This document shows, piece by piece, positions 24,685-38,798 of a stretch of 64,000 nt of DNA. The translations under genes and the position numbers were made by a program. This stretch comes from Escherichia coli (lineage in GTDB: Bacteria; Pseudomonadota; Gammaproteobacteria; Enterobacterales; Enterobacteriaceae). The notes beneath the pieces were generated by a model. That model did not search any database and was not told where the DNA came from. It was given only the letters and a program-made list of their open reading frames with translations. Where the stretch lies: assembly GCF_024298765.1 (NCBI RefSeq), contig NZ_CP101210.1; one strand, 5' to 3'. Numbering within the stretch: the stretch's first letter is position 1; each line of letters starts with the position of its first letter.

Positions 24685-24712
24685 CCCCGGCGGCGTTTTG
24701 TCGCCGGGTTTA
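24685..24712. terminator. Bidirectional terminator between convergent ppsA and fadK
   Basis: CCCCGGCGgcgttttgtCGCCGGG hairpin with flanking A/T runs. Confidence 0.6.
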
Positions 24713-24733: not shown

Positions 24734-26434
24734 TTATTCAATCTCTTCACAGACATCCTGAGTTAATCGCCGCATAATATCTTTCCTTAACAAAAACTTT
24801 TGTATTTTACCTGAGGCTGTGCGCGGTAGTTTTTCGATTACCACGATATGTTCAGGATATTTATATTTCGCGACCCGTTTACGGCTAAAAAATGCCACTA
24901 CATCTTCCAGCGATAATGAATGATGCGGTGCTTTCAGCACGACATAAGCGCATGAACGTTCACCTAAGCGTTCATCGGGCATTGCAACCACACAAGCATC
25001 GTGAATTTTAGGATGCTGCAATAAAATATCTTCTACTTCACGGCTGCTAATATTTTCGCCGCCGCGGACAATAATATCTTTCTTGCGCCCGGTTATTTTT
25101 ATATAGCCAGCCTCATCCATGCGGCAGAGATCGCCGCTGTAATACCAGCCTTCTTCATCCAGCGCACGGGCGGTTAATTCAGGTTCATCAAAATACCCCA
25201 TAAACACATTGGGGCCACGCGAGGCTTCTTCACCTTCGCAACCTGGCGGTAAAGTCTTGCGTGCGTCATCGACCACTTTAATCTCTACACCTGCGGCAGC
25301 GTAACCATCGGTGTGTATAAAGCGCGACAAAGGATCATCGAGATTCACCACCGCATGCGGCGAACTTTCTGTGGAACCATAAACACTTAATAATTTAATG
25401 CCGCGCTGCTGGCATTCACGCGCCACTTTTTTGGGGATTGTGGTACCGCCGCAAAGAAAGAAACGCAGCGCTGAAAGGTCTGCGGGCTGTTTCTCCAGTA
25501 AATTCAAAAGATCATAGACAAACGGCGTTGCGCCGAGCATACAGGTGCAACGCTGCTGCTCAAGCAGCGCGAGACACGCAGCAGGAGTGAAAATATCTAA
25601 CAACACGCTGCGAGCACCAATCAAAAAAGGTGCTGTTACGCCATGCAGAAAGCCCGTTGCGTGACCAAGTGGCGCAGGCATCATAAAGACATCCTGCCAG
25701 GTCAGATTTAGCCGCGCGCAATAAGCCCGCTCACTGGCGAGAATATTGTTATGCGTTAGCATCACGCCCTTTGGCAGACCCTCGGTTCCGGAGGTAAACA
25801 GCACCGCGGCTAATTCATCGCCGTGGACCGTTATCGCCGTGGTCAGAGGAGTATTGTCGGCGATAATCTGACTTAATGAGAGAGCAGAGGTGGCGGGAGC
25901 CAGTTTGTCCACGCCGACAATTTGTTGTAGTTGTGGAAGCTGATTTTGCAGCGGCAGGATTAAATCTACCGGACGCGTTTGTTTAAACAACGTCGGTGCA
26001 AAGAACATTTTTGCCTGACACTTATTGAGCACCCACACCAGTTCTGCTTCTCGCCAGGAAGGCAACAGCGGCACGGAAACCGCACCGGTTTTCAGGCAGG
26101 CAAGATAGATAACGGTAAATTCACACCAGCCTGGCAGTTGAAATGCGATGCGATCGCCTGATTCAATACCCTTCGCTAACATCCAGTTTGCCAGACAGCT
26201 CGCGGCGTGATCGAGCGCGCTATAAGTGTACGTTGCACCATGATTGTCGACCACGGCAATTTTGTCTGGCATCGCACGAGCGGTCTGCTGCCAGTAATCG
26301 GCCAGTGAAGCATCGCCCCATAACCCTTGCTGACGATACGCCGCACGACGTTGTTCGTTGAACGTTAATGTCACTTTCATTTTGGACTCTCGAAACAGAA
26401 CATCAGGCCCGAGATGCGGGCCTGTGGGATGCAT
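24734..26434 (-). CDS. fadK: Short-chain acyl-CoA synthetase (anaerobic), 566 aa ORF
   Basis: AMP-binding enzyme motifs (TSGTEGLPKGV, YGSTE); matches FadK/YdiD; the true start may be a downstream Met. Confidence 0.9.
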   Translation of the reverse strand: MHPTGPHLGPDVLFRESKMKVTLTFNEQRRAAYRQQGLWGDASLADYWQQTARAMPDKIAVVDNHGATYTYSALDHAASCLANWMLAKGIESGDRIAFQLPGWCEFTVIYLACLKTGAVSVPLLPSWREAELVWVLNKCQAKMFFAPTLFKQTRPVDLILPLQNQLPQLQQIVGVDKLAPATSALSLSQIIADNTPLTTAITVHGDELAAVLFTSGTEGLPKGVMLTHNNILASERAYCARLNLTWQDVFMMPAPLGHATGFLHGVTAPFLIGARSVLLDIFTPAACLALLEQQRCTCMLGATPFVYDLLNLLEKQPADLSALRFFLCGGTTIPKKVARECQQRGIKLLSVYGSTESSPHAVVNLDDPLSRFIHTDGYAAAGVEIKVVDDARKTLPPGCEGEEASRGPNVFMGYFDEPELTARALDEEGWYYSGDLCRMDEAGYIKITGRKKDIIVRGGENISSREVEDILLQHPKIHDACVVAMPDERLGERSCAYVVLKAPHHSLSLEDVVAFFSRKRVAKYKYPEHIVVIEKLPRTASGKIQKFLLRKDIMRRLTQDVCEEIE

Positions 26435-26436
26435 GA

Positions 26437-26730
26437 TTAGCCGTAGCGAAATTCAATACCGAAGGTGCCTGCGGGATATTGCCACTGTTCGAGAATAGTG
26501 TTGCCGCACAGCACCCGACAGGTGCCGCACTCCAGACAACCGGCGGAATCGAAATGAATGTTTCCTGCGTCATCCTGCTTATAAAGTCCGGCAGGGCAGG
26601 CTTTCATTAATTTACGGAATTCATTGATATCGGGATTTGCCGCCAGAATGATATGCGGGTGGCCCTCATCAACATGGAATTTATTTACGCCTAATTTGAT
26701 GTCGACGTTAACCGTAGCGTTCTGGCTCAT
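26437..26730 (-). CDS. ydiT: Ferredoxin-like protein YdiT (FixX-like), 97 aa
   Basis: Cys cluster CLECGTCRVLC; matches YdiT. Confidence 0.88.
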   Translation of the reverse strand: MSQNATVNVDIKLGVNKFHVDEGHPHIILAANPDINEFRKLMKACPAGLYKQDDAGNIHFDSAGCLECGTCRVLCGNTILEQWQYPAGTFGIEFRYG

Positions 26731-28016
26731 AGCGCGGTTGCTCCCTTAATGCCATCTTTCAGCAAGTTGATCAGTCCAATTTTCTTCGCGTGTCCCATGA
26801 TCATTTTGCGTACCGGTTGGTTAGGTTTGCCGTCGATGGTGAACATCTCGTTCATGATGTCGGCGACCATTCGTGGGTATTGGCTAAACAGGCGCGGGTT
26901 TTCCATCAGCGCCGGGATCTTGCGAAAATGCTGCATATCACGCATGACGCAGCTTTGTTCCAGCTCACGTTTGTATTGCGCAAGACTGCTGGCGGAGAAA
27001 TCCGCGCGTTCTTTGGCGGCGATCACTGTTGTGGCGGCAGCCTGAGCCGATGCAATGGCTAAATCCATGCCGCGGACCGTAAAACCCAAATTCAGGCAGA
27101 AGCCTGCGGCGTCACCAACGATCATCACGCCATCGTTAACCAGCTGCGGCACCATTGCCAGACCGCCCTCCGGCACCATATGCGCGGAGTATTCAAGCAG
27201 TTTGCCGCCGCTAATCAGCGGGCGAATGGCGGGGTGTTGTTTAAAATCTTCCAGCATTTGCGGCACACTTTTTTGCGCATGGGCGATATCACCCAATCCA
27301 CAAACCAGCCCCAACGATACGGAATCTTTGTTGGTATAGAGGAATCCGCCGCCCATCAGGCCGTCAGAAGGGGAACCGGCAAACAGCCAGGCGGCACCTT
27401 CCTCGCCCGTAACATTAAAGCGATCGTTGATCTGTTCTGGTGTCAGGCCTATAACCTCTTTAACACCAACAGCGTAATGATGCGGATCGGAAGCGGAAAC
27501 CATTCCCAGCGAGCGGCCAAGCATCGAGTTAACGCCATCAGCCAGAATCACCACATTCGCTTCGAGAATATCATCCCCGGCCTGGACGCCAGTGACCTTG
27601 TTTCCTTCACGAACCAGTGCATCGACGCGTACGCCCGGGATAAACTGCGCGCCCGCCTGCTCGGCTTGTTCCATCAACCACGGGTCCAGACGATTACGCA
27701 ATACGGTATAAGACGCGTGTTGCGGAACATCTGGTTGCTCGCGGTGAAAATCGAGGGTAACGGCGCTTTCTTCGGTTAAGAAGGAGATTTTCTCGCGTGT
27801 GACCTTGCGTTCTACCGGCGCTGATGCTGCAAAGCCTGGAATAATTGCGTCAAGTGTGTGGGCATAAAGACGCCCGCCGGTCATGTTTTTACATCCGGCA
27901 CTGTCGCCGCGTTCTATCACCAGGACATCCAGCCCGGCTCGCGCCATGACCAGTGCGGCAACGCTACCGGCAACGCCCGCACCGACCACAATGGCATCAA
28001 ATTTGTCATCCGACAT
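26727..28016 (-). CDS. ydiS: ETF-quinone oxidoreductase-like flavoprotein YdiS (FixC-like), 429 aa
   Basis: N-terminal FAD-binding GxGxxG (DAIVVGAGVAGSVAA); 4-nt overlap with ydiT. Confidence 0.9.
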   Translation of the reverse strand: MSDDKFDAIVVGAGVAGSVAALVMARAGLDVLVIERGDSAGCKNMTGGRLYAHTLDAIIPGFAASAPVERKVTREKISFLTEESAVTLDFHREQPDVPQHASYTVLRNRLDPWLMEQAEQAGAQFIPGVRVDALVREGNKVTGVQAGDDILEANVVILADGVNSMLGRSLGMVSASDPHHYAVGVKEVIGLTPEQINDRFNVTGEEGAAWLFAGSPSDGLMGGGFLYTNKDSVSLGLVCGLGDIAHAQKSVPQMLEDFKQHPAIRPLISGGKLLEYSAHMVPEGGLAMVPQLVNDGVMIVGDAAGFCLNLGFTVRGMDLAIASAQAAATTVIAAKERADFSASSLAQYKRELEQSCVMRDMQHFRKIPALMENPRLFSQYPRMVADIMNEMFTIDGKPNQPVRKMIMGHAKKIGLINLLKDGIKGATAL

Positions 28017-28070
28017 GCGTTATGCTCCCTTCCCGCTGCGTTTACAGCGGGAGATGTGGTTGAAAGGGAA

Positions 28071-29009
28071 TCAGCGACTCAACTGGCTAATCAGGGCAGG
28101 GACGACTTTGTAGATATCGCCCACCAGACCGTAGTCGGCATAGTTGAAGATTGGCGCATTTTTATCTTTATTAATGGCGACAATCACTTTTGCGCCGTTG
28201 CCGCCAACCATATGCTGGATCTGCCCGGAGATCCCCAGCGTCAGGTAGAGATCGGATTTCAGCAACACGCCGGAGACACCGATATAACGTTCACGCTCCA
28301 TCCAGTTCTCGCCTTCGGCAATTGGACGTGAACAGCCGACTTCAGCATTCAGCACCGCCGCCAGTTCGTGGACCATTTTCAGGTCATCCTGCGCTGCCAG
28401 ACCACGACCGACGCCAACCACACGTTTTGCTTTGCTCAGGTCCACGCTGCTTGCCGCTTTCGCACGGCGTTCGCGACAGAGAATTTCATGACGCGGGGCA
28501 ACATAAGGTACCGTTTCTGTCGGACACTGATTAGAGGTATCACTGGTGCACGGTTCCTGAACACCGGGCGCAAGGGTAATGATCGCCAGCGGGCTATTGA
28601 TCTTTTCCTGTGCGAACGCTAACCCGCCATACATCCGGTGTTCGGCGCAAATGTGACCATCGACAATATCCACCGCAGTGGCATCGTTCACCAGCGCCGC
28701 ATTCAGTTGCACACTTAACCGTGCAGCCAGAGCTTTACCGCGTTTCGTCGCGGCCAGCAGCAACATAGAAGGGTGTTTATCTTTCAGCAGGGCAGCAATG
28801 CTTTCGGCGTAATTTTCAGTACGTTGCAGCGCGTCGTTTTGCGCAAGAACATAAATGCATTTTGGCCCATAAGGCATAACTGTCTGCGCCTGGTCGGTAT
28901 TTTGTACAATGGCATACACCTGTTGGCCCCATTGCTGAGCGCCGCCAAACAGTTCAGCATAACGTTCAGGATTATCGCTAAAGACCCAGACGCTGTTTAA
29001 TTGACTCAT
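28071..29009 (-). CDS. ydiR: Electron transfer flavoprotein alpha subunit YdiR (FixB-like), 312 aa
   Basis: 312-aa ORF; ETF-alpha family; matches YdiR. Confidence 0.9.
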   Translation of the reverse strand: MSQLNSVWVFSDNPERYAELFGGAQQWGQQVYAIVQNTDQAQTVMPYGPKCIYVLAQNDALQRTENYAESIAALLKDKHPSMLLLAATKRGKALAARLSVQLNAALVNDATAVDIVDGHICAEHRMYGGLAFAQEKINSPLAIITLAPGVQEPCTSDTSNQCPTETVPYVAPRHEILCRERRAKAASSVDLSKAKRVVGVGRGLAAQDDLKMVHELAAVLNAEVGCSRPIAEGENWMERERYIGVSGVLLKSDLYLTLGISGQIQHMVGGNGAKVIVAINKDKNAPIFNYADYGLVGDIYKVVPALISQLSR

Positions 29010-29028
29010 CGTTTCTTCTCCGTAGGCT

Positions 29029-29793
29029 TCAGTTCAGGGCTTTCTTCAGATGTTCCGCCAGCTCGGCAATGGCCTCCGGCGAATCGTTATCGAGAATGAT
29101 GTGCTTACGTTCTGTTTGCGGCGGTACGCGAATGCCGGTCAGTTCAGCAAGTGGTGCGCTCTGGCTCCAGCCAATATCACTTGCCTGCCACTGATTTACC
29201 GGTTTTTTACCCGCGCCGAGGATGGCTTTCATCGAAGGAATACGTGGTACGTTAATATCGGAGGTGACGCAGAGCACGGCTGGAACAGAGAGTTCAATAA
29301 CTTCAACATCATCTTCAAGCGTGCGTTCAATCACCAGTGTATTGCCCTGACGCTGAATGGCACTCACTGCATTAATCACCGGAAGTTGCAGAATTTCTCC
29401 GACCAGCAAGCCAACCTGCTGGGCATAAAGGTCGCCGGAACCTTCACCAAAGATCAGTAAATCGAAGCCGATCTTTTCAACTGCTGTCGCCAGCGCCTTT
29501 GCGGTATCGAGAGGCAGTGCATGCTCAAGTTGTGCATCCTGCACCATATACAGGCTGTGCGGCCCGCGGGATAGCACGTCTTTGCGCACTTTCGAGTTCT
29601 GCAACAAAGAGCCGCCGACGGTCAGCGCGGCTATCTCATCGTCATCTGTTGCAAGCTGGCTTGCAGCTTCAATGGCATTGAGATCGAACTGGCTGATTTT
29701 GGCGTCGGCATTGTCGAAATTCAGGGTATATTCTGGAGTGACAACAATGTCCTGTTCTTCAGGCACCAGCTTAAAGCAGGTTATTATTTTCAT
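29029..29793 (-). CDS. ydiQ: Electron transfer flavoprotein beta subunit YdiQ (FixA-like), 254 aa
   Basis: MKIITCFKLVPEEQDIVV...; GGAGAAATC Shine-Dalgarno upstream of the ATG at 29793; the supplied ORF has a spurious 33-aa 5' extension. Confidence 0.9.
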   Translation of the reverse strand: MKIITCFKLVPEEQDIVVTPEYTLNFDNADAKISQFDLNAIEAASQLATDDDEIAALTVGGSLLQNSKVRKDVLSRGPHSLYMVQDAQLEHALPLDTAKALATAVEKIGFDLLIFGEGSGDLYAQQVGLLVGEILQLPVINAVSAIQRQGNTLVIERTLEDDVEVIELSVPAVLCVTSDINVPRIPSMKAILGAGKKPVNQWQASDIGWSQSAPLAELTGIRVPPQTERKHIILDNDSPEAIAELAEHLKKALN

Positions 29794-30108
29794 GATTTCT
29801 CCTGTGAGTCGCATACGGAACCATCTCCGATGGAAGGTAAAAATGGCCTGAAAATAGTGTGCGATAGCGGTGCGGGGTTTTCGACGGAGCAAGCTGTTTT
29901 CCTTGCCAACAATCTTGCAAAAAAAATGCGATCGCTAAAACAAAAGTGCAATTTGCGGCAATGTTGTTATTCCATGACCGTACAATCTTGCATTCAGTGT
30001 AAATAATCTTGTTTAGCTCTCGCTAAACGCGGTTGTATAACCGCAATACACGCCGTATTTTATCCGGCATATATTGTTTTTGCTTGCTCATGGAATAGGG
30101 AGGTTGTC

Positions 30109-31020
30109 ATGTATCAACGCTGTTTTGATAACGCCAGCGAAACGCTGTTTGTCGCCGGTAAAACGCCACGGCTTTCACGTTTTGCATTTAGCGATGATCC
30201 AAAATGGGAGTCCGGACATCACGTTCATGACAATGAAACCGAGTTGATTTACGTCAAGAAAGGGGTAGCAAGGTTTACCATCGATTCTTCGTTATATGTC
30301 GCGCATGCCGATGACATTGTGGTGATAGAACGTGGCAGGTTGCATGCGGTGGCCTCTGACGTTAACGATCCAGCAACGACGTGTACCTGTGCGCTGTACG
30401 GCTTTCAGTTTCAGGGGGCTGAGGAAAATCAGCTACTGCAACCGCATTCTTGCCCGGTAATTGCCGCAGGGCAGGGAAAAGAAGTCATTAAAACCTTATT
30501 TAATGAGCTAAGTGTGATTTTGCCGCAAAGTAAAAATAGCCAAACATCTTCGTTATGGGACGCATTTGCCTATACGTTAGCAATTCTTTACTATGAAAAC
30601 TTTAAAAATGCTTATCGTTCGGAGCAGGGGTATATTAAAAAAGATGTTCTGATAAAAGATATTCTTTTCTATCTGAATAATAATTATCGCGAAAAAATCA
30701 CTTTAGAGCAGTTATCGAAAAAGTTTCGTGCCAGCGTCAGTTATATTTGCCATGAATTTACCAAAGAGTATCGCATTTCCCCTATTAACTATGTTATTCA
30801 ACGGCGTATGACGGAAGCGAAATGGTCACTCACTAATACTGAATTATCACAGGCAGAGATCTCCTGGCGTGTGGGTTATGAAAATGTCGATCACTTTGCC
30901 AAACTGTTTTTGCGCCATGTCGGCTGTTCGCCCAGCGATTACCGCAGGCAATTTAAAAACTGTTTTGCGGAACAAGAAATCCTATCTGAATTTCCTCAAC
31001 CAGTAAGTCTTGCCGGATAA
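30109..31020 (+). CDS. ydiP: AraC-family transcriptional regulator YdiP (303 aa)
   Basis: C-terminal AraC-type HTH; divergent from ydiQRST. Confidence 0.88.
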   Translation: MYQRCFDNASETLFVAGKTPRLSRFAFSDDPKWESGHHVHDNETELIYVKKGVARFTIDSSLYVAHADDIVVIERGRLHAVASDVNDPATTCTCALYGFQFQGAEENQLLQPHSCPVIAAGQGKEVIKTLFNELSVILPQSKNSQTSSLWDAFAYTLAILYYENFKNAYRSEQGYIKKDVLIKDILFYLNNNYREKITLEQLSKKFRASVSYICHEFTKEYRISPINYVIQRRMTEAKWSLTNTELSQAEISWRVGYENVDHFAKLFLRHVGCSPSDYRRQFKNCFAEQEILSEFPQPVSLAG

Positions 31021-31024
31021 ATCT

Positions 31025-31056
31025 GGCGGCGCAGTTTGTTAAGAAGCTGCGCCGCC
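31025..31056. terminator. Bidirectional terminator between convergent ydiP and ydiO
   Basis: GGCGGCGCAG...CTGCGCCGCC inverted repeat. Confidence 0.55.
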
Positions 31057-31062
31057 TGCAGA

Positions 31063-32214
31063 TTATTTGTTCTGATAATCTTTCAGGATCTGCCGACCTG
31101 CTACGTAAATCATAATTTCGTCTGTACCGCCGCCGATACGTTCACAACGGACATCACGCCAGAAGCGGGAGACGCGCGCCTCATCGGTATAGCCCAGACC
31201 GCCCATGATTTGAATCGCATCATCAATGACTTCCATTGCGGTACGTGCGCAGTACAGTTTTGCCAGCGCCGCGCTGGTGCGCAGTGACTGATGCTGATCG
31301 GCTTGCCATGCCACTTTCAACACCATGTTGCGCATGTTGTCGATCTTAATCGCCATCAGCGCCAGTTTTTCCTGGATCATCTGGTTATGACCAATGGGCT
31401 TACCAAAAGCGATACGCTGGTTGGCATAGCGGGCGGCATCTTCGAATGCGCATTCGGCAAAGCCGGTGCTGCGCGCGGCGTTGATCAGGCGCTCCATCTC
31501 AAAGTTGTACATCACATTGAGGAAACCCATTCCTTCTTCGCCCACCATGTCGCTCTCTTCAACTTCCACGTTGTCGAGATAGACTTCGCAGGTGCTGAGC
31601 ATATGCCAGCCGATTTTATGCAGCGGGTTAATCTTAATGCCGGGCTTACTGGAGTCGACCCACCACAGGGTGAAGGCCTTTTTCGGATCTTTCGGTTCTG
31701 GATCGCGCGCCAGCACCAGCATATACGGGTACTCTTTCGCACCGGTAATAAAGGTTTTCTGGCCGTTGATGTAAACCTTGCCGTTTTTACGCGTGTAAGT
31801 GGTGGTGGCGCTGTTGTTATCTGAGCCTGCGCCTGGTTCCGTCAATGCCAGGGCATAGGCGGGATCACCCGTTTCCAGGGTGCTTTCCGCCGTTTTACGT
31901 AGCTGCTCTGCAGAACCGAAACGGCGCATACTGTGAATACATTGACCGTTGGTGATCAAAAATGCCGGGGCACCGCATTTTGACACTTCCATCAGCGCCA
32001 GCATTTGGGTGACGTAATCCGCAGGGATACCACCAAATTCTTCCGGCACGCCAAGCATGGAAATACCGTTATCCGCCAGTGCCCGCATAAATTCACGCGG
32101 GTATGTCCCGTTTTGATCGCAGGTGCGGAAATACTCTTCCGGAAAGTTAGTCGTAATCAGTTCGCGAATACTGGCCAGCAGCAGTTCTTGTTCTTCAGTT
32201 AAAGAAAAATCCAT
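31063..32214 (-). CDS. ydiO: Acyl-CoA dehydrogenase YdiO (383 aa)
   Basis: MDFSLTEEQELLLASIRELITTNFPEEY...; acyl-CoA dehydrogenase family; start at 32214 (the supplied ORF has an 18-aa extension that overlaps ydiF). Confidence 0.9.
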   Translation of the reverse strand: MDFSLTEEQELLLASIRELITTNFPEEYFRTCDQNGTYPREFMRALADNGISMLGVPEEFGGIPADYVTQMLALMEVSKCGAPAFLITNGQCIHSMRRFGSAEQLRKTAESTLETGDPAYALALTEPGAGSDNNSATTTYTRKNGKVYINGQKTFITGAKEYPYMLVLARDPEPKDPKKAFTLWWVDSSKPGIKINPLHKIGWHMLSTCEVYLDNVEVEESDMVGEEGMGFLNVMYNFEMERLINAARSTGFAECAFEDAARYANQRIAFGKPIGHNQMIQEKLALMAIKIDNMRNMVLKVAWQADQHQSLRTSAALAKLYCARTAMEVIDDAIQIMGGLGYTDEARVSRFWRDVRCERIGGGTDEIMIYVAGRQILKDYQNK

Positions 32215-32227
32215 CATTATACTCCTG

Positions 32228-33823
32228 TTAATGAGCCGCTTCAGGCAGGACAAAACCCATCGCCGCATCGATAAATAATCTTTCGTCCATCAGTTTGAGT
32301 TCTGGCGAAATCACTGGGGTGAAATCCATTTTGTCGAGAATATCTTTTTGTAAATCGACGCCAGGAGCGATTTCGATTAAATGCAGGCCGTCTTCTTTCA
32401 GCGTGAATACGGCGCGCTCAGTGATATAACGAACATCCAGCCCTCGCTCGAGCGCGATTTTTCCGCTAAAAGTAATTTCTGGTAGTTCCCGAATAAATTT
32501 CTTCACCCGTCCTTCCTGGACGATATTTAATTTGCCGTCGGTAATTTCTGTTTTTAAACTGCCCGCAGTTAATGTGCCGCAGAAAACGATTTTCTTCGAA
32601 GTGGCACTGATATCAATAAATCCACCGGTGCCCATGATTTTACCATTGAATTTATGCACGCCGACGTTACCGTGCTGGTCGACTTCAGCAAAACTCAAAT
32701 AACAAACATCCAGACCACCACCGTGATAAAAATCAAACTGGGACGTCATATCCAGAATGGCGCGGGTATTCACGTTCGCGCCAAAGGCGATCCCCTGTGA
32801 AGTAATACCGCCAATCGGACCTGTTTCTACCGTCAGAATAAAGTCATCAGCACAACCTTCTTCCCGGGCGACCAGGCCAATGCCGTCAGCAATACCGACG
32901 CCGACATTCCCCACTGCGCCTTTGCGCATTTCGAATAATGCACGCCGTGCAACTAATTTACGTTGGTTTAGGGGCAGGCTAAGTTTGGTGCTGTCATCAA
33001 GGGTGAAGTCACCAGAAATAAAGCGGTTAACCGGCGCTCCGCCATACAGTTGGGTTTGATCCGGATCGACCACCACAATATCCACCAGATAACCCGGAAT
33101 ACGGACAGATTTAGGATGCAGCGTGGCTTTCTTAACCATTTTCTGCACCTGCATCATCACAATACCGCCGTTATTGTGCACCGCCTGAGCAATAACCAAT
33201 GCGTCGAGATACATCACCTCATCTTCAAAAGTGGCGTAGCCTTCGCTGTCGCAGGTGGTAGCGCGAATGAAGGCGATATCTGGCGCTATCGCTTTGTAAT
33301 AGAGATATTCTTGGTTATCAAACTCGACCAGTTTAATCAGGTCTTCTTTAGTGACTTCATTCAGTTTGCCGCCTTGCTGGCGTGGATCGACAAATGTTCC
33401 GATGCCAATATCACTAATAATACCAGGCTGGTGGGCTGCGGCGGCGCGTAAGGTTTGTGTAAGTACACCTTGTGGATAGTTATAAGCAATAATTTTATTT
33501 TGTTCTGCGAGATCAGAAATACGCGGCGATTGTCCCCAGTGACCGCATAATGCCCATTTCACCAGGCCTTCTTGCGCCAGCGGACTAATACCACGGTCGG
33601 CGCGATCGCCAAGCCCTGTTGGACTAATAATCGATAAATTACGTGGTGTTTGAGTCTGTTTATATTTATCAGCAAGAGCAGTAATTAACGTGGTGGCTTC
33701 CAGAATACCGCCGCCAGCGCCTAACACACAAAGTGTTGCTTCGTCGGGAATATAATTCACCGCTTCCTGTGCCGACAGGACCGGCACTCGTCCATTAATG
33801 CGAGGTGGTTTTACAGGTTTCAT
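32228..33823 (-). CDS. ydiF: Acyl-CoA:acetate CoA-transferase YdiF (531 aa)
   Basis: 531-aa ORF; family I CoA-transferase fused alpha/beta; matches YdiF. Confidence 0.9.
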   Translation of the reverse strand: MKPVKPPRINGRVPVLSAQEAVNYIPDEATLCVLGAGGGILEATTLITALADKYKQTQTPRNLSIISPTGLGDRADRGISPLAQEGLVKWALCGHWGQSPRISDLAEQNKIIAYNYPQGVLTQTLRAAAAHQPGIISDIGIGTFVDPRQQGGKLNEVTKEDLIKLVEFDNQEYLYYKAIAPDIAFIRATTCDSEGYATFEDEVMYLDALVIAQAVHNNGGIVMMQVQKMVKKATLHPKSVRIPGYLVDIVVVDPDQTQLYGGAPVNRFISGDFTLDDSTKLSLPLNQRKLVARRALFEMRKGAVGNVGVGIADGIGLVAREEGCADDFILTVETGPIGGITSQGIAFGANVNTRAILDMTSQFDFYHGGGLDVCYLSFAEVDQHGNVGVHKFNGKIMGTGGFIDISATSKKIVFCGTLTAGSLKTEITDGKLNIVQEGRVKKFIRELPEITFSGKIALERGLDVRYITERAVFTLKEDGLHLIEIAPGVDLQKDILDKMDFTPVISPELKLMDERLFIDAAMGFVLPEAAH

Positions 33824-33968
33824 TGTTAATTCCTGATTCAGGTGTGATTTTCCCTACGCCAGATGGAGAATTAGCGCACAGAGACTCACAAAATATTTTT
33901 ATTAAATACGGTTAAATATATTTTTTTTAGTTCGGCGGGGGAGGATATTCCCGCCGAAATATTATTGC

Positions 33969-34727
33969 TTATGCCTGATGTAAAATAGTTAATACTGTGC
34001 GCAAATCATTTACCGAGATTTGCCCTGGTGCAGAGGCTTTTTTTACCGCACCAAAAGTTGCCGCCGAGCCAAATACTTCACCAGCCAGACGAGAAATTAC
34101 GCCAGTTTTTGCCATCGACATCGTGATGATTGGACGATCGGCATACTGCTCCTGCATCTCCAGGGTCGCGGCAAGCAACGTCAGCACATCGCTGGTACTT
34201 TGCGGCATCAGCGCAATCTTAGGAATATCGGCGTCGAAGGATTGCATTTTGCGCAGACGGGCAATGATTTCTTCGGCTTCCGGCGTTTTATGGAAGTCAT
34301 GGTTGGACATGACAACTTTCACATCATGCGCGTGGGCGTAGGCGACGGTTTCTTTAACCTGATCATCGCCGGTAAATAACTCCAGATCGATCATATCAAC
34401 CAGGCCGCTGTCGATGGCTGCACGATTGAGTGCAATATAAGCCTCGGTGGAAATCGCCTGCTCGCCGCCTTCTTTGGCACTGCGGAAGGTAAACAGCAGC
34501 GGTTTTTCTGGCATGGTTTCACGGAGAATTTTTGCTGCCGCTATGACAGACTCCACATTGGAGAGATCGGCATAGTGGTCCACACGCCATTCCAGAATAT
34601 CAAAGTCCGCTTCACGATAGGCGAGAGCTTCGGATTTCACGCTGGCGATATCTTTCGCCATCAGCGAGACGATGATTTTAGGTGCGCCCGTACCAATGAC
34701 GAGATCTTTTACAGTTACGGTTTTCAT
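33969..34727 (-). CDS. aroD: 3-dehydroquinate dehydratase, type I (252 aa)
   Basis: [52 protein letters not shown]... matches AroD. Confidence 0.95.
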
Positions 34728-34757: not shown

Positions 34758-35624
34758 TCAGGCACCGAACCCCATGACCTGTTTAACATATTCCAGAGGG
34801 AAATCTTTGCCAGTCCATAACGTGAACTGTTCAGCCCCTTGCCACAACAACATGCCGTATCCATCAATCGTTTTGCAACCAGCTTGTTGCGCCTGCTGCA
34901 ATAACTTCGTCATATGCGGGTTATACACGCATTCAGTGACCAGAAGTCCCGGATGTAACAGACTGATATCATTAACCAATGATTCATTCTCAAGGGGTTT
35001 CATGCCCACTTTTGTGCCATTGGTTAAAATGTCGGCGGACGCCAGGGCTTCAGCAAAGGCTTGCTGATCGGCGAGATCGGTAACCGTGACGACACAATCG
35101 GTGTTTTCGTTAACCCGCTGCGCGAAGGCGAGGGCTTTATCGAAGAACTCATCCCGACGGTTAAAGAGTTTAATTTCTTTTAAACCTTCAATTGCCCCCT
35201 GCGCGCCAATTGCCGTTGAGGCACCACCGGCCCCTAATAGCACCATCGTTTTGCCTTTGATATCAAAACCGCTCTCTTTAATGGCGCGAATATGACCCGT
35301 GCCGTCGGTGTTATAGCCACGCAGATAGCCATCATCATTAACGATGGTGTTGATGGCACCCACCAGTTTGGCCGCTGGCGTTAATTCATCAACATATTCA
35401 CACGCCAGTTGTTTGTTCGGCATCGACACACCAGTTCCGCGCATTTTGAGGGCTTTTAATCCTTCAATTGCTCCGGGAAAACTATCGTTATCCACTTCAA
35501 AGGCCATATAGGTAAATGGCAATCCCGCTTTTTCTAAGGCTTTATTCTGCATTTCGGGCGATAAACTGTGGCGGATGGGATAGGCCATCAACCCAATCAA
35601 TTCGTATTTTGCGGTAACATCCAT
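34758..35624 (-). CDS. ydiB: Quinate/shikimate dehydrogenase YdiB (288 aa)
   Basis: [44 protein letters not shown]... matches YdiB. Confidence 0.93.
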
Positions 35625-35635
35625 AATTAACTCCT

Positions 35636-36907
35636 TTAACCTCTATGCTTAATTGTGTTTAACCGGGTGCTAAATTTATGCTCGCCAAACCGCACATCAT
35701 TTTCAGGAATAATGAAAACGCGATAATAGCGGATAAAAACAATAATTGCGGTAATCAGGGCCAGCAGCGCGAAAGTAAAATCGAGAGCGATGATATATTG
35801 CAGGCCGATGTTCGACAGATAACCGGTAATCAGCGGAATAACAAAGTTAGCCAGTCCACCCATCATCATATAAATACTGGTGACTTTGGCTTTGCTTTTG
35901 GGGAAAAACTCTGACATGACCGAAACGCCGAGCTGTAAAATGCCGCCAGCTGCTGAGAAACCGATAACAAAGGCTCCGGCATTACACACCAGTGGAGAAG
36001 GGTACAGGTAGATAATGGCTGCTGTTATTGTTGCCAGTGCAGAGTTAAATACATTAGCCCAGATGGGCCGGACCATTTTTTTCAGTAGTGCGGCAAAAAT
36101 AAAGACACAGACCAACGAGCCCATACTGTAATAAGAGATGGTTTTTAATGCTTCAGCTTCTGACATACCAGCAAAAGCCATCGCATATTTGGGCATCCAC
36201 ACCACAATCACATAAAAGGTCGCGAATGCGGCTACACCGAACAGTACCGATGAAACACCTTCCAGCCAGACTAACGGTTTGCTGTTCATTTGCGGTAATT
36301 CATTAGCTACGCTGGCGTCCACCAACTGGCTGGGGAATTTGCTTTTCAACAGCATCAGCGTGATCAGTACAAACAGAATACCCGGAATAATCAGCCCATA
36401 GCCGTACCAGATGTTATTGAGCAACATATAGCTCACCAGCATTGGGTAGAACATTTGCCCGAATGACACCATCGCTTTAACCAGTATGACCGCCGAACCA
36501 GTGGCTTTCGGAAAGCATTCCATGAGCGCGGGGTAGCCACCCGTATCCAGCGCTGAATTAGCGATACCTACGCACACTGCCAGACAGTAGGCGAGAGTTA
36601 AATTCGGGCAAGCAGGAATACCAAAGAAGAATAGCAGATACATTATTACTGCCATTAATATCACCGCCCGACGACCAAACTTATCGGAGATCACACCGAA
36701 GAATAAAATACTGATCAATCGCCCCAAACCGATACCGGAAATTAAATAGGCAATGCCCGCGTTGTCAGTGGAAAACTTTTCTGCCAAAGATGTCATGTTT
36801 TGGGCAAGCGTAATAACACTAATGCCGTGCAGGAAATAGCTGAAGTAAATACAAAGAACAGCCAGGATAAATGGCGTGCTGAAAGCCTTATTTTGAGACA
36901 TTTTCAC
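35636..36907 (-). CDS. ydiN: MFS transporter YdiN
   Basis: 12-TM-like hydrophobic profile with MFS motif ([19 protein letters not shown]); start codon ambiguous within the first few residues. Confidence 0.85.
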
Positions 36908-37127
36908 AGCACCTTGCTGAAAGATAATTTCGTTACCGTACGTATTGTTCTCCGACGGTTTACATAATTACTATACTGAAGATGATTTTCCCTGGGTACA
37001 TGGCATAAAGTTTATGTTTCCAGGAATATTGCATGTCATAGTTTGTTTTTGATCGCGATTTTCCTTAGTTAGCGCAGAAAGAGTTATTTATCCGTAAGAT
37101 CTTGCATGACCTGAAAAGAATATTGCA

Positions 37128-38342
37128 TTACCCACCCGGAGCGACATTTTCCTTTAGCGAGTGATGCCGCGTTTCTTTGCGGCTGCGTAAGCCGATAAAC
37201 AGCGCCAGTAAAAAGCCGATGGCAGCGATGGCGGTATCGAACCACATAATATCGGCAATACTTCTTTGGGACAGATGAGCCGTAATCAACGGAATAGTAA
37301 AGGTCGCAATACTGCCCGCACTGTAATAGATCCCTGTAGCTTTACCTTTAGCGTAGGGGAAACGTTCAGCCATTAATGTCAGGCCAATTTGCACAACACC
37401 TCCAGCAGAGGTAAAACCAATGACAAAAGCAAATATTATCACCACATAAAATGTGGGATGCAGGCAGACGGTAAACAGAGCAATAAATGAGATAAAGGTG
37501 TACAGCATCAGTAATGTTGTTGGGCGAACGGTATTACGAATGAGTGGAGCGGTAATAAATACACAAAGCAGCGAACCCACGGTGTAGATACTGAGTAGTT
37601 TGATCGACATAGTGTATGACATGCCAGCAACAAATTGTCCGTATTGTGCCAGCCACTGGCTAACCAGATAAAACGTTGCCATTGAGATATAGCCATATAG
37701 GGAATAACTGGCTAAATCGATAATTGAACAGCGATGTTCCGTAGAGCTGGTGGTTTTCTTTATGACAGGTAAGCGACGACCCGGATGGGGTGGGAACGTA
37801 CAACGGCATAAAAACAGAGCGTTAATAAACATAATGCCTGCGGCAATCATAAAGGACCAACCGAACCACAGTTCAGCCCACACTAACAGGCTAATTATTA
37901 GCGGTAATAAAAATTGTCCGCTGGAAACAAATGCTTTAATTAAAATATTGGCTGTCCCAGGTGAGCGTGGAAAAGCTTCCATCAAACTGGGATAGGTGCC
38001 TGCATCGAGAAAACTGTTTGCCATTCCCGCCAGAAAGCCAAAAACATAAGCGATAATGATGTTATTGGTGTGCAGGATGCCAAAAAAGAAGGCCATATAG
38101 CAGCACATCCCGAGCATGATAAAAGGGCGGCGACCAAAGCGATCGGATAATAATCCTGCAAAAAGCAAGACACTTAATCGACCAATGCCCAGTGATGAGA
38201 TAACTATCGAGACGCCCGCGGCATTAGTCTGCCAAAGCGTCTCCAGCGAGGCCATATTCAGGCTCATCAAAATGACGCCCATACCATGCACCAGGTAATT
38301 AAAATACAACCCCAGTGCGGTAGGGTAATAGGGATTTTTCAT
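37128..38342 (-). CDS. ydiM: MFS transporter YdiM (404 aa)
   Basis: Paralogous to the adjacent ydiN; MFS motif GRLSVLLFAGLLSDRFGRR. Confidence 0.85.
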   Translation of the reverse strand: MKNPYYPTALGLYFNYLVHGMGVILMSLNMASLETLWQTNAAGVSIVISSLGIGRLSVLLFAGLLSDRFGRRPFIMLGMCCYMAFFFGILHTNNIIIAYVFGFLAGMANSFLDAGTYPSLMEAFPRSPGTANILIKAFVSSGQFLLPLIISLLVWAELWFGWSFMIAAGIMFINALFLCRCTFPPHPGRRLPVIKKTTSSTEHRCSIIDLASYSLYGYISMATFYLVSQWLAQYGQFVAGMSYTMSIKLLSIYTVGSLLCVFITAPLIRNTVRPTTLLMLYTFISFIALFTVCLHPTFYVVIIFAFVIGFTSAGGVVQIGLTLMAERFPYAKGKATGIYYSAGSIATFTIPLITAHLSQRSIADIMWFDTAIAAIGFLLALFIGLRSRKETRHHSLKENVAPGG

Positions 38343-38441: not shown

Positions 38442-38798
38442 TTAACAAAGCCGCTCCAGATCGTGTGCATATAATTCAGCGGCTACCGATTGATAGATCT
38501 TCCAGTCAATAAAATTGCCATCAGGGTAGACTTGTTGAAACGCGGTTAAGTCGGGGAAAAAACGCATGGTGTTGTTGCCGATGCGGTTATTTATTTTCTC
38601 TATGATGGCATGAAGATGTTTTTTTCTTTGCTGACGCATAGCCAACAGTTGCTCGACTACACGATCAGGAATGGCGTATTTGCCATTTTCCCATTGACGC
38701 CAGCTTTCACTGTCACCGGTCTGGGCAATCCAGGTCGCGCATTCATCAATAGTCATGGCAAAAATATGGCGGAGTGCCTGGAGTTCATAAGCGTTCAT
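38442..38798 (-). CDS. ydiL: Uncharacterized protein YdiL (118 aa)
   Basis: MNAYELQALRHIFAMTIDECATWIAQ...; start set at the internal ATG (38798). Confidence 0.78.
   Translation of the reverse strand: MNAYELQALRHIFAMTIDECATWIAQTGDSESWRQWENGKYAIPDRVVEQLLAMRQQRKKHLHAIIEKINNRIGNNTMRFFPDLTAFQQVYPDGNFIDWKIYQSVAAELYAHDLERLC

Follow-up and report, generated by a model that had tools for sequence, protein, structure and literature searches.

The ydiF-ydiO, ydiP and ydiQRST-fadK genes of Escherichia coli: a candidate non-bifurcating, Cai/Fix-like system linked to quinate and shikimate genes

Introduction

What do the ydiF-ydiO, ydiP and ydiQRST-fadK genes of Escherichia coli do for the cell, and in which direction do electrons pass through the proteins that they encode? 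These genes (b1694-b1701 in strain K-12) form a known, named locus, which occupies positions 24734-33823 of the 64,000-nucleotide stretch of contig NZ_CP101210.1 (assembly GCF_024298765.1) analysed here, hereafter referred to as the window. An earlier note on this DNA described a complete acyl-coenzyme A (acyl-CoA) module coupled to an electron transfer flavoprotein (ETF), serving an anaerobic short-chain acyl-CoA oxidation or reduction system that was possibly bifurcating. As an account of a named core-genome locus that description is correct and, as written, ordinary.

The physiological substrate was said to be unsettled, in agreement with the literature, in which YdiO serves as an example of a y-gene product with limited functional information (PMC6412132) and the contribution of YdiQRST to catalysis is called unclear (PMC10318755). 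A comparative study of Salmonella lists ydiFO, ydiQRST and fadHIJK as genes of anaerobic β-oxidation and ydiP as a regulator (PMC3967523), and a 2016 paper (Gulevich), cited by title in PMC10318755, places ydiO and ydiQRST in an anaerobic β-oxidation dehydrogenase complex.

Here we argue that the locus is one half of a larger conserved unit, which includes the ydiN transporter gene, the quinate/shikimate dehydrogenase gene ydiB and the dehydroquinase gene aroD. The reading that we favour, tentatively and a little short of calling it probable, is that of a Cai/Fix-like, menaquinol-driven, non-bifurcating system that would reduce shikimoyl-CoA, rather than one devoted mainly to fatty-acid oxidation. 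Nothing structural distinguishes the locus from that of K-12; what differs is the reading, in that the system is taken to be non-bifurcating and functionally joined to ydiN-ydiB-aroD.

Gene content and integrity of the locus

The interval runs from the 3' end of fadK (24734) to the start codon of ydiF (33823) and holds eight uninterrupted genes, fadK, ydiT, ydiS, ydiR, ydiQ, ydiP, ydiO and ydiF, with zero internal stops in the list of open reading frames (ORFs). All 9090 bases are identical (100%) to NZ_CP029164.1, as they are to many other complete genomes, and the genes, their order and their orientation in that annotated record are those of the window. The locus is matched in 5424 of 5426 complete E. 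coli genomes, with at least 80% of the region covered in 5346. Just past the identical stretch there is an apparent one-base difference between the window and strain 104, and the position of aroD in the ORF list is shifted by one relative to the annotation.

Every domain named in the earlier note is borne out by Pfam, namely the AMP-binding ligase, the ferredoxin-like protein, the flavin adenine dinucleotide (FAD) oxidoreductase with the ubiquinone-binding domain of ETF-quinone oxidoreductase (ETF-QO), ETF alpha, ETF beta, the AraC/cupin regulator, the three-domain acyl-CoA dehydrogenase (ACAD) and the family I CoA-transferase. The gene names are likewise right, and NCBIfam equivalogs match the proteins over essentially their whole length (for example 1-547/548, 1-429/429, 1-312/312, 1-254/254 and 1-382/382). 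The FadK equivalog, with 1086 bits over 1-547/548, is named medium-chain fatty-acid--CoA ligase, and its runner-up family is cyclohexanecarboxylate-CoA ligase, at 420 bits and under that family's cutoff. YdiF aligns end to end with the chain in PDB 2AHU/2AHV/2AHW (1-531 of 531, 1187.5 bits), and the best solved relatives of YdiS are 7koe_C (6.6e-71) and the pig ETF-QO 2gmh.

The layout resembles two operons and a regulator. There is a 4-base overlap of ydiS and ydiT, while ydiQ and ydiR are separated by 19 bp and ydiF and ydiO by 13 bp, an operon-like spacing that fits co-transcription. ydiP, on the + strand, is divergent from ydiQ over a 315-bp spacer and convergent with ydiO; its position is kept in Enterobacterales, and AraC-family genes also flank two of the related metagenomic clusters described below (L008 and L056). 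Co-expression holds for the ydiQRST operon, since ydiQ, R, S and T shift in parallel (32.5, 32.4, 20.1 and 28.1) in the transcriptome of a shikimate overproducer (PMC4015609), where they rank with the genes that change most. A reading of the same ratios as induction of ydiQRST by shikimate (20-32x) was rejected: they compare an earlier with a later growth phase and come with no non-producer control. That they read as numerator over denominator follows from the atp, cyo and pyr genes being 'up' in EXP/STA1, and expression of ydiQRST falls from a high level at 5-9 h to a low one at 44 h.

Conserved linkage with quinate and shikimate genes

A pattern-based scan of species-representative genomes returned at least 45 loci, which were annotated by tblastn with the E. 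coli proteins, and clusters were counted where YdiO was at least 70% identical and the flanks were usable (n=46 among the matches listed). A type I dehydroquinase (DHquinase_I) is present in all 46 of these clusters and a YdiB orthologue (75-100% identity) in 45; the clusters come from more than 12 genera and show about six gene orders. Across these taxa and arrangements the two genes, together with one for a transporter of the major facilitator superfamily (MFS), are co-localised with the CoA, ACAD and ETF genes. In Escherichia, Citrobacter, Kosakonia, Intestinirhabdus and six Yersinia species, ydiN-ydiB-aroD-ydiF-ydiO are contiguous and co-directional, followed by ydiP and ydiQRST-fadK; the same array is found in Brenneria, Dickeya, Serratia, Prodigiosinella, Symbiopectobacterium and others. 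ydiM and ydiL are kept upstream of ydiN in all Enterobacterales loci.

Outside this order the genes are differently arranged. In the betaproteobacteria Sutterella seckii and S. wadsworthensis, ydiN, ydiB, aroD, ydiF and ydiO are divergent from ydiQRST, and in a Sutterella-type scaffold the ligase gene comes after ydiT. Two metagenomic clusters with YdiO relatives at 77-83% identity show further orders: L008 has MFS, YdiF-like transferase, YdiO, ETF-beta, ETF-alpha, shikimate dehydrogenase, type I dehydroquinase, FixC and FixX, and L009 has MFS, transferase, YdiO, ETF-beta, ETF-alpha, dehydroquinase, FixC, FixX and ligase. In a third, L056, shikimate dehydrogenase and dehydroquinase stand directly after ETF-alpha, with a MaoC dehydratase added.

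The module boundary that had been drawn at ydiF is therefore not upheld, as the conserved unit runs on through aroD, ydiB and ydiN; ppsA lies outside it, because it is adjacent in Escherichia and Citrobacter only. The idea of an anaerobic short-chain acyl-CoA system fares in two ways: the ligase FadK and the ACAD YdiO are indeed there, but a generic short-chain substrate is disfavoured by the extension of the unit through aroD, ydiB and ydiN. YdiM/YdiN-type transporters have been tied to shikimate-pathway genes without a link to ydiFO or ydiQRST (PMC10588857). Full-text searches, with subscription journals outside their coverage, found no paper that places the ydi module in a quinate/shikimate unit. 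We know of no settled physiological role for YdiB.

These neighbourhoods bear on the main, published rival explanation, in which the locus is primarily the ACAD branch of anaerobic β-oxidation: FadK (or YdiF) would activate butyrate and C6-C12 acids, YdiO would oxidise the thioesters, electrons would pass from YdiQR through YdiST to quinone and finally to an acceptor such as nitrate, FadI and FadJ, whose genes lie elsewhere, would complete the cycle, and the aroD and ydiB neighbours would be unrelated. The domain content suits such a chain from ACAD through ETF to ETF-QO, as does the NCBIfam name of FadK. Against it, the dehydroquinase (46/46) and shikimate dehydrogenase (45/46) genes stay with the cluster through about six gene orders, and other β-oxidation genes were not detected in the clusters searched: tblastn with CaiD as probe found no crotonase-family gene in L008-L051 and L053, and the Pfam tables of L008, L009, L055 and L056 contain no ECH, hydroxyacyl-CoA dehydrogenase (3HCDH) or thiolase, holding of dehydratases only the MaoC of L056.

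The association with ydiB and aroD is specific to the clade, because more distant YdiO-like clusters, at 62-68% identity, have a CaiB-type transferase and neither gene. These relatives, nearer to YdiO than CaiA is, come from Desulfovibrio, a Pectobacteriaceae genome and E. albertii, and their clusters, which include a regulator gene, follow the logic of the ydi locus with other components. The three sister clusters, L003 (Desulfovibrio desulfuricans), L004 (Pectobacteriaceae CE70) and L005 (E. albertii, near ung/grcA/trxC), share a YdiO-like ACAD, a second ACAD of ~400 aa and an MFS gene; L003 and L005 have a CaiB-type family III CoA-transferase, L003 and L004 ETF, FixCX and ligase genes, and L004 and L005 a gene with a desulfoferrodoxin domain. 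No shikimate genes were found in any of the three, which probably represent another CoA-loop reductase.

Two further observations concern distant or unusual members. In the stretch 13199-17125 of L056, the shikimate dehydrogenase and dehydroquinase genes are followed by genes for an ApbA-type reductase, a MaoC-type (enoyl-CoA) dehydratase and a glyoxalase-fold protein, with no FixC/FixX within 10 kb, which hints at further ring processing in some organisms, for instance dehydration of a 3-hydroxyacyl-CoA. An orphan YdiO homologue of 74% identity (P0027; 10001-11143 in L006 and L007) lies beside an NrfD/4Fe-4S/cytochrome c set and an aldo-keto reductase; its surroundings (10 kb, both loci) hold no ETF, CoA-transferase or shikimate genes and are uninformative for the association.

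A DNA motif shared by the two halves of the unit

ACAATCTTGCA occurs twice without mismatch in the spacer between ydiQ and ydiP, at 29909 and 29982 (73 bp apart). Upstream of ydiN there are three related copies, with cores at 37025-37033, 37098-37106 and 37119-37127, of which the last two stand 21 bp apart. The core, WATCTTGCA, occurs at the same two places, the ydiQ/ydiP spacer and upstream of ydiN, in every Enterobacterales genus examined, and pairs at 21-bp spacing are present in E. coli, in both Sutterella spacers, and in L008 and L041. Among 15 representative loci, 25 of the 32 exact WATCTTGCA copies fall in the ydiP/ydiQ and ydiN-upstream spacers, which account for 4.7% of the bases. A position weight matrix (PWM) built from non-Escherichia sites only, and scanned over the 64-kb window with 20 shuffles, ranks the ydiQ/ydiP sites first and second (25.7 and 20.5, against a 20-shuffle maximum of 19.1) and gives 15.6 (37025), 15.1 (37098) and 15.8 (37119) within the 226-bp spacer upstream of ydiN. 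The signal is limited to exact copies, the PWM and positions across genera, because a search of the whole window for ACAATCTTGCA with up to 2 mismatches shows no enrichment (23 against 24.4 expected).

Direct repeats at 21-bp spacing are typical of operators of the AraC family, which makes YdiP the obvious candidate to bind them. The shared motif is evidence for, not proof of, joint regulation of the ydiN operon and of the promoters of ydiQ and ydiP, and it counts against the β-oxidation account, in which aroD and ydiB would be unrelated neighbours. The aroD-ydiF spacer has no motif copy in most genera, and a YdiP site is not claimed there.

Two more PWM hits, of 18.2 and 17.8, lie upstream of ydiL (38877, -) and inside ydiM (38147), respectively. 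Citrobacter, Kosakonia, Intestinirhabdus and Serratia have a related site upstream of ydiL, which makes ydiL and ydiM possible members of the same regulon. In Sutterella, no AraC-family gene lies near the clusters, and the ydiQ/ydiN spacers are unusually long (L044 3655-5018, ~1.4 kb; L040 3464-4949, ~1.5 kb). There is no ORF of at least 90 aa in the L044 spacer and no tblastn match in that of L040; both contain several WATCTTGCA-type copies, including 21-bp pairs.

That ydiN-ydiB-aroD-ydiF-ydiO, ydiP and ydiQRST-fadK (perhaps with ydiL and ydiM) make up one regulon for a new CoA-dependent quinate/shikimate respiration is a good possibility, to which we would give rather less than even confidence.

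The ETF carries altered flavin motifs

The FixABCX-like character of the electron transfer set is confirmed by identities of 55, 43, 61 and 64% between YdiQ, YdiR, YdiS and YdiT and the E. coli FixA, FixB, FixC and FixX proteins respectively, and the four-gene set of EtfB, EtfA, FixC-like flavoprotein and FixX-like ferredoxin is complete in the locus. A FixABCX set could suggest bifurcation. In this second rival explanation, YdiQR would bind a second, bifurcating FAD and couple NADH and ferredoxin or flavodoxin to the reduction of enoyl-CoA or quinone (bifurcation or confurcation), on the model of Bcd-EtfAB, CarCDE and the Azotobacter/Thermotoga FixABCX/EtfABCX complexes, which is also the model used in engineering of reverse β-oxidation. 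In its favour, the solved structures that come nearest to YdiQ and YdiR in sequence are bifurcating ETFs, namely CarDE (6fah), LctBC (7qh2) and the Clostridioides difficile Etf (5ol2), and the gene set is that of FixABCX.

The motifs that discriminate between the classes point the other way. The ETF-beta alignment comprised human ETF-beta, three solved bifurcating subunits and ten YdiQ/FixA-type sequences (E. coli YdiQ, E. coli FixA and the YdiQ homologues of Yersinia, Dickeya, two Sutterella species, two more distant clusters, L008 and L009). At the first motif, solved bifurcating EtfB subunits have GADTWATS, while YdiQ and all its orthologues have ALPxxTA (A-L93-P94-L-D-T97-A in YdiQ), in which only the equivalent of T97 is retained, in ten out of ten YdiQ/FixA-type sequences. 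At the second, YdiQ, E. coli FixA and all orthologues have GDLYAQQVG, against DGDTAQVG in the three solved bifurcating subunits; DGDTAQVG is the signature of group 2 (bifurcating) ETFs. GDLYAQQVG does not match the canonical AMP loop of human ETF (DDDCNQTG) either, the Q..G part alone being common to both. The clade of YdiQ and E. coli FixA is therefore a third type, neither bifurcating nor canonical.

EtfS residues D93, T94, T97, G127 and V232 and EtfL residue R165 differ in conservation between bifurcating and canonical ETFs, and T94A/T97A alone abolishes the bifurcating FAD and NADH reactivity of the Rhodopseudomonas palustris ETF (PMC6764259). That changes at T94 and T97 suffice to lose the bifurcating FAD weighs against a second such FAD in YdiQR, as does the replacement of both motifs in all orthologues. 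The surroundings of the EtfA arginine next to the bifurcating FAD (R165 in R. palustris) differ: where bifurcating EtfA has TRPAFGG, YdiR has EHRMYGG and FixB KHMVYGG. The aligned residue is His, although in YdiR an Arg follows one residue later.

The ferredoxin also speaks against bifurcation. YdiT has five cysteines (45, 65, 68, 71 and 75), four of them conserved across all orthologues, arranged as one CxxCxxC and one distal Cys-Pro, which suffice for one [4Fe-4S] cluster; E. coli FixX has four, whereas the Thermotoga maritima EtfX (7koe_D) has nine, and bifurcating FixX proteins are described with two [4Fe-4S] motifs. Compared with the bifurcating FixABCX/EtfABCX of Azotobacter vinelandii and T. 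maritima (PDB 7KOE), the four subunits are homologous (YdiS-7koe_C 6.6e-71, YdiT-7koe_D 1.8e-14), but the ydi set has no bifurcating-FAD motifs, one Fe-S motif instead of two and no link to nitrogen fixation. On these grounds the suggestion of bifurcation made in the earlier note is not supported; we regard it as very unlikely, and YdiQRST as most likely a simple quinone-linked, non-bifurcating ETF path.

YdiO and the direction of electron flow

YdiO is 48% identical to CaiA of K-12, and FadK 29% identical to CaiC. After its own equivalog, the next NCBIfam families of YdiO are crotonobetainyl-CoA dehydrogenase and the clostridial acryloyl-CoA reductase. The enzymes for crotonobetainyl-CoA and acryloyl-CoA are physiological enoyl-CoA reductases. 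YdiO and CaiA both lack the C-terminal catalytic Glu, with RIGGGTDEI in YdiO and VSGGS in CaiA against QIYEGTNEV in the butyryl-CoA dehydrogenase of Megasphaera elsdenii. E241-R242 of YdiO (FEMER) are invariant in 12 aligned sequences including CaiA, and Glu241 presumably occupies the position of the catalytic base of isovaleryl-CoA dehydrogenase.

The reported potentials are -10 mV for crotonyl-CoA/butyryl-CoA and -70 mV for menaquinone (PMC5861303). With these values the reduction of an enoyl-CoA by quinol is downhill without bifurcation, and oxidation with menaquinone is uphill. Both the energetics and the reductase relatives of YdiO count against β-oxidation as the primary function.

A whole-organism precedent comes from Sutterella. 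According to a preprint on anaerobic respiration in the gut (10.1101/2022.12.26.521950), S. wadsworthensis and Eggerthella lenta convert shikimate to hydroshikimate by reducing its enoate group, and shikimate stimulates the growth of S. wadsworthensis with formate as donor. RNA sequencing in that study covers E. lenta and Holdemania filiformis only, and an assignment of the Sutterella enzyme was not found in its text. S. wadsworthensis DSM 14016 carries the cluster (L044, nine genes at 183-11149), and the strain assayed in the preprint was another one, DFI.4.78; the phenotype is consistent with a shikimate substrate but not decisive. The shikimate-induced reductase of E. lenta, a flavin enzyme resembling urocanate reductase, has the net reaction that is proposed here for the ydi route, from shikimate to hydroshikimate, as a respiratory electron sink in gut bacteria. 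It belongs to an unrelated enzyme class and acts on the free acid, whereas the ydi route would use a CoA thioester, an ACAD and an ETF.

The relatives of YdiO, the redox potentials and the Sutterella phenotype thus indirectly support enoyl-CoA reduction as its physiological direction. The third rival explanation takes the opposite one: saturated ring acids produced by other microbes of gut or plant habitats, for instance hydroshikimate or cyclohexane-type carboxylates, would be oxidised as CoA thioesters to shikimate, with electrons passing to the quinone pool, and the shikimate would be salvaged for aromatic biosynthesis via YdiB and AroD. The synteny and the shared motif apply to it equally, a chain from ETF to an ETF-QO-like protein is classically oxidative, gut bacteria do produce hydroshikimate, and aroD and shikimate are on the biosynthetic route. 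We nevertheless consider it improbable, because the cluster-bearing Sutterella is reported to reduce shikimate and not to oxidise hydroshikimate, the nearest characterised ACAD relatives are reductases, and menaquinone-linked oxidation is uphill under anaerobic conditions.

A proposed pathway and its precedents

Shikimate is an α,β-unsaturated carboxylate (cyclohex-1-ene-1-carboxylate), and its CoA thioester is an enoyl-CoA, which places shikimoyl-CoA in the substrate class of CaiA-type reductases. In the pathway that we propose, several plant acids could enter, as YdiB and AroD would channel quinate, dehydroquinate and dehydroshikimate to shikimate. FadK would prime the cycle by making the first CoA thioester, after which YdiF would transfer the CoA of each product to a new substrate molecule, a division of labour seen in CaiC/CaiB and CarB/CarA. 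Electrons would pass from menaquinol to the flavoprotein YdiS and YdiT, with its one [4Fe-4S] cluster, then to the YdiQR ETF and on to YdiO, which would reduce the C1=C2 bond of shikimoyl-CoA (or dehydroshikimoyl-CoA). Hydroshikimate would be released, the whole acting as an anaerobic electron sink, and activity on butyrate and C6-C12 acyl-CoA would be secondary or promiscuous.

The logic of this 'CoA loop' is that of the paralogous CaiA/CaiB/CaiC and FixABCX proteins. The carnitine system (CaiTABCDE with FixABCX) is built of paralogous parts, with a transporter, a priming ligase, a CoA-transferase and an ETF-fed ACAD acting as enoyl-CoA reductase, and it has the altered ETF-beta motifs and the single-cluster ferredoxin in common with the ydi system. 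In the ydi locus, too, a priming AMP-ligase (FadK) and a CoA-transferase (YdiF) lie together. The two systems differ in that YdiF is a family I transferase and CaiB family III (tblastn with CaiB gave no match at the ydiF gene), in that the ydi set has no CaiD-type hydratase and an MFS protein, YdiN, instead of the antiporter CaiT, and in that its partner enzymes act on quinate and shikimate rather than carnitine.

Caffeate respiration in Acetobacterium woodii (CarABCDE) is alike in combining a CoA-transferase, an ATP-dependent priming ligase, an ACAD-type enoyl-CoA reductase and an ETF for a plant-derived unsaturated acid, and the top-scoring solved structures for YdiQ and YdiR include CarD and CarE (6fah). 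CarCDE, however, is a soluble, bifurcating enzyme for whose ETF [4Fe-4S] motifs are listed, whereas the ydi set has a FixC/FixX-like quinone link.

The ydiQRSTD butyrate operon of Salmonella is orthologous, with a YdiO that is 95% identical, and provides the sole in vivo phenotype for the ETF genes found in the literature, as far as the citing papers report it. It has been assigned to butyrate oxidation, whereas the gene neighbourhood points to hydroaromatic acids; promiscuity of the enzymes would reconcile the two readings.

Weighing the evidence

Several points weigh against a shikimate substrate, beginning with published experiments, known here through the papers that cite them. fadK (ydiD) supports anaerobic growth on fatty acids (Campbell 2003); Salmonella needs ydiQRSTD for anaerobic use of butyrate, for which an electron acceptor is required (Bronner 2018; reviews PMC9530198 and PMC6249985); and ydiO and ydiQRST are parts of a β-oxidation dehydrogenase in Gulevich 2016, according to the citing paper. 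The β-oxidation account draws support from these studies, and the view in PMC10318755 that the catalytic role of YdiQRST is unclear tells against it; as the primary function of the locus we hold it to be somewhat unlikely, and far from negligible. The fatty-acid phenotypes may reflect a real secondary activity of a system that, on the reading we prefer, would mainly reduce shikimoyl-CoA.

The genomic evidence also has its weak points. aroD is the biosynthetic dehydroquinase of E. coli, so its placement within Enterobacterales could reflect inheritance rather than function. YdiO of the Sutterella block is 80-84% identical, and the block may therefore be a single horizontal transfer instead of an independent sample. 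The nominal P of 2e-27 for the concentration of the motif in the two spacers leaves aside the shared ancestry of orthologous spacers. The 145-bp spacer between aroD and ydiF has a hairpin and lacks a motif copy, which makes co-transcription of the two genes no more than a possibility. Sutterella has many flavin reductases, any of which could reduce shikimate instead. Reduction of shikimate by E. coli, acceptance of shikimate by YdiF and binding of the motif by YdiP are all predictions. A plant-derived substrate would suit the taxa that carry the cluster, which live in the gut or in association with plants.

Hairpins, binding sites and other features

The coordinates of the features are collected in Table 1. 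The earlier note had placed bidirectional terminators at the ppsA/fadK and ydiP/ydiO boundaries; the hairpins are real, and a terminator role in both directions is plausible, although the U-tracts of both are imperfect. The first (24686-24708) is of moderate stability, with -19.5 kcal/mol (z = -2.5) for the + strand; the - strand forms a 7-bp stem followed by a U-rich tail, GAUUUAUUUUAUUU. The second (31025-31056) is highly stable, with -30.7 kcal/mol (z = -6.3) for the + strand and -23.6 kcal/mol (z = -5.2) for the - strand. As a class, terminator-like sites are not enriched in the region (15 against 12.5 expected). An Rfam scan of 22-36 kb at E <= 1 gave zero matches, and a sigma-70 promoter scan was uninformative, with 8 sites, fewer than the 11.8 in shuffles.

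Table 1. Features of the locus and its conserved neighbours (positions in the window)
Feature	Position	Strand	Basis or remark
GC-rich hairpin between convergent ppsA and fadK	24686-24708	.	top terminator-like site in the scan (10 pairs, 8 GC); likely two-way terminator
fadK (ydiD), AMP-forming acyl-CoA ligase, 548 aa	24734-26380	-	Pfam AMP-binding and AMP-binding_C
ydiT, FixX-like ferredoxin, cysteines for one [4Fe-4S]	26437-26730	-	64% identity to E. coli FixX
ydiS, FixC/ETF-quinone-oxidoreductase-like flavoprotein	26727-28016	-	61% to FixC; Pfam ETFQO_UQ-bd
ydiR, ETF alpha (large) subunit with electron-transfer FAD domain	28071-29009	-	Pfam ETF and ETF_alpha; 43% to FixB
ydiQ, ETF beta (small) subunit without bifurcating-FAD motifs	29029-29793	-	55% to FixA
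two exact ACAATCTTGCA copies in ydiQ/ydiP spacer	29909-29919 and 29982-29992	+	candidate YdiP operator sites
ydiP, AraC-family regulator with cupin ligand-binding domain	30109-31020	+	Pfam HTH_18, Cupin_2, AraC_binding
13-bp GC-rich hairpin between convergent ydiP and ydiO	31025-31056	.	folding energy, both strands
ydiO, CaiA-like acyl-CoA dehydrogenase/enoyl-CoA reductase	31063-32214	-	48% to CaiA
ydiF, family I CoA-transferase	32228-33823	-	Pfam CoA_trans; PDB 2AHU/2AHV/2AHW
aroD, type I 3-dehydroquinate dehydratase	33969-34727	-	annotation; beyond the range of the earlier note, within the conserved unit
ydiB, NAD-dependent quinate/shikimate dehydrogenase	34758-35624	-	annotation; within the conserved unit
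ydiN, MFS transporter	35636-36901	-	annotation and synteny; heads the ydiN-ydiB-aroD-ydiF-ydiO array
three motif copies upstream of ydiN	AATATTGCA 37025-37033, GATCTTGCA 37098-37106, AATATTGCA 37119-37127	+	
ydiM (MFS)	37128-38342	-	possible regulon member
ydiL	38442-38798	-	possible regulon member

Two more hairpins lie in gaps between genes. The 56 bp from the ydiT stop to the annotated start of fadK (26381-26436) contain an 8-bp hairpin with 7 GC pairs at 26404-26424 (-), of -17.7 kcal/mol (z = -1.9), which could tune the expression of fadK relative to ydiQRST; an alternative, longer fadK ORF starting at 26434 would take it in. In the 145-bp aroD-ydiF spacer (33824-33968), a 9-bp GC-rich hairpin (33931-33958) stands just past the aroD stop and is followed on the coding (-) strand by an A-run, not a U-run, and then by a highly AT-rich stretch; read-through from aroD into ydiF looks possible because of the A-run in place of a U-run.

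Binding sites for other regulators have been reported within the locus in K-12. A sigma-54 binding site inside fadK has the sequence GCGGCACGGAAACTGCA (PMC4591121); the corresponding antisense site in the window, 26068-26084 (+), reads GCGGCACGGAAACCGCA, with one change and the GG and GC core dinucleotides intact. Published genome-wide binding studies place a site for PtrR (YneJ), found by chromatin immunoprecipitation with exonuclease digestion (ChIP-exo), within ydiF, and a site for FlhDC, found by systematic evolution of ligands by exponential enrichment (SELEX), in the ydiO/ydiP/ydiQ region.

Implications

This analysis adds to the published picture of the locus a case against bifurcation, made from sequence, and a specific, testable quinate/shikimate hypothesis, towards which three lines of evidence lead: the conserved neighbourhoods, the shared candidate operator and the shikimate-respiring phenotype of a Sutterella that bears the cluster. 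If the hypothesis is true, it would provide a physiological role for about ten poorly understood E. coli genes and account for the retention of the NAD-dependent YdiB by E. coli. The shikimate reductase of Sutterella would be identified, along with that of many Enterobacterales from gut and plant habitats, and the hypothesis would add a diet-derived electron acceptor to the gut physiology of the Enterobacteriaceae. According to reviews (PMC9530198 and PMC6249985), Salmonella Typhi has deleted ydiQRSTD, and the deletion of these genes in typhoidal serovars of Salmonella would then call for a different interpretation.

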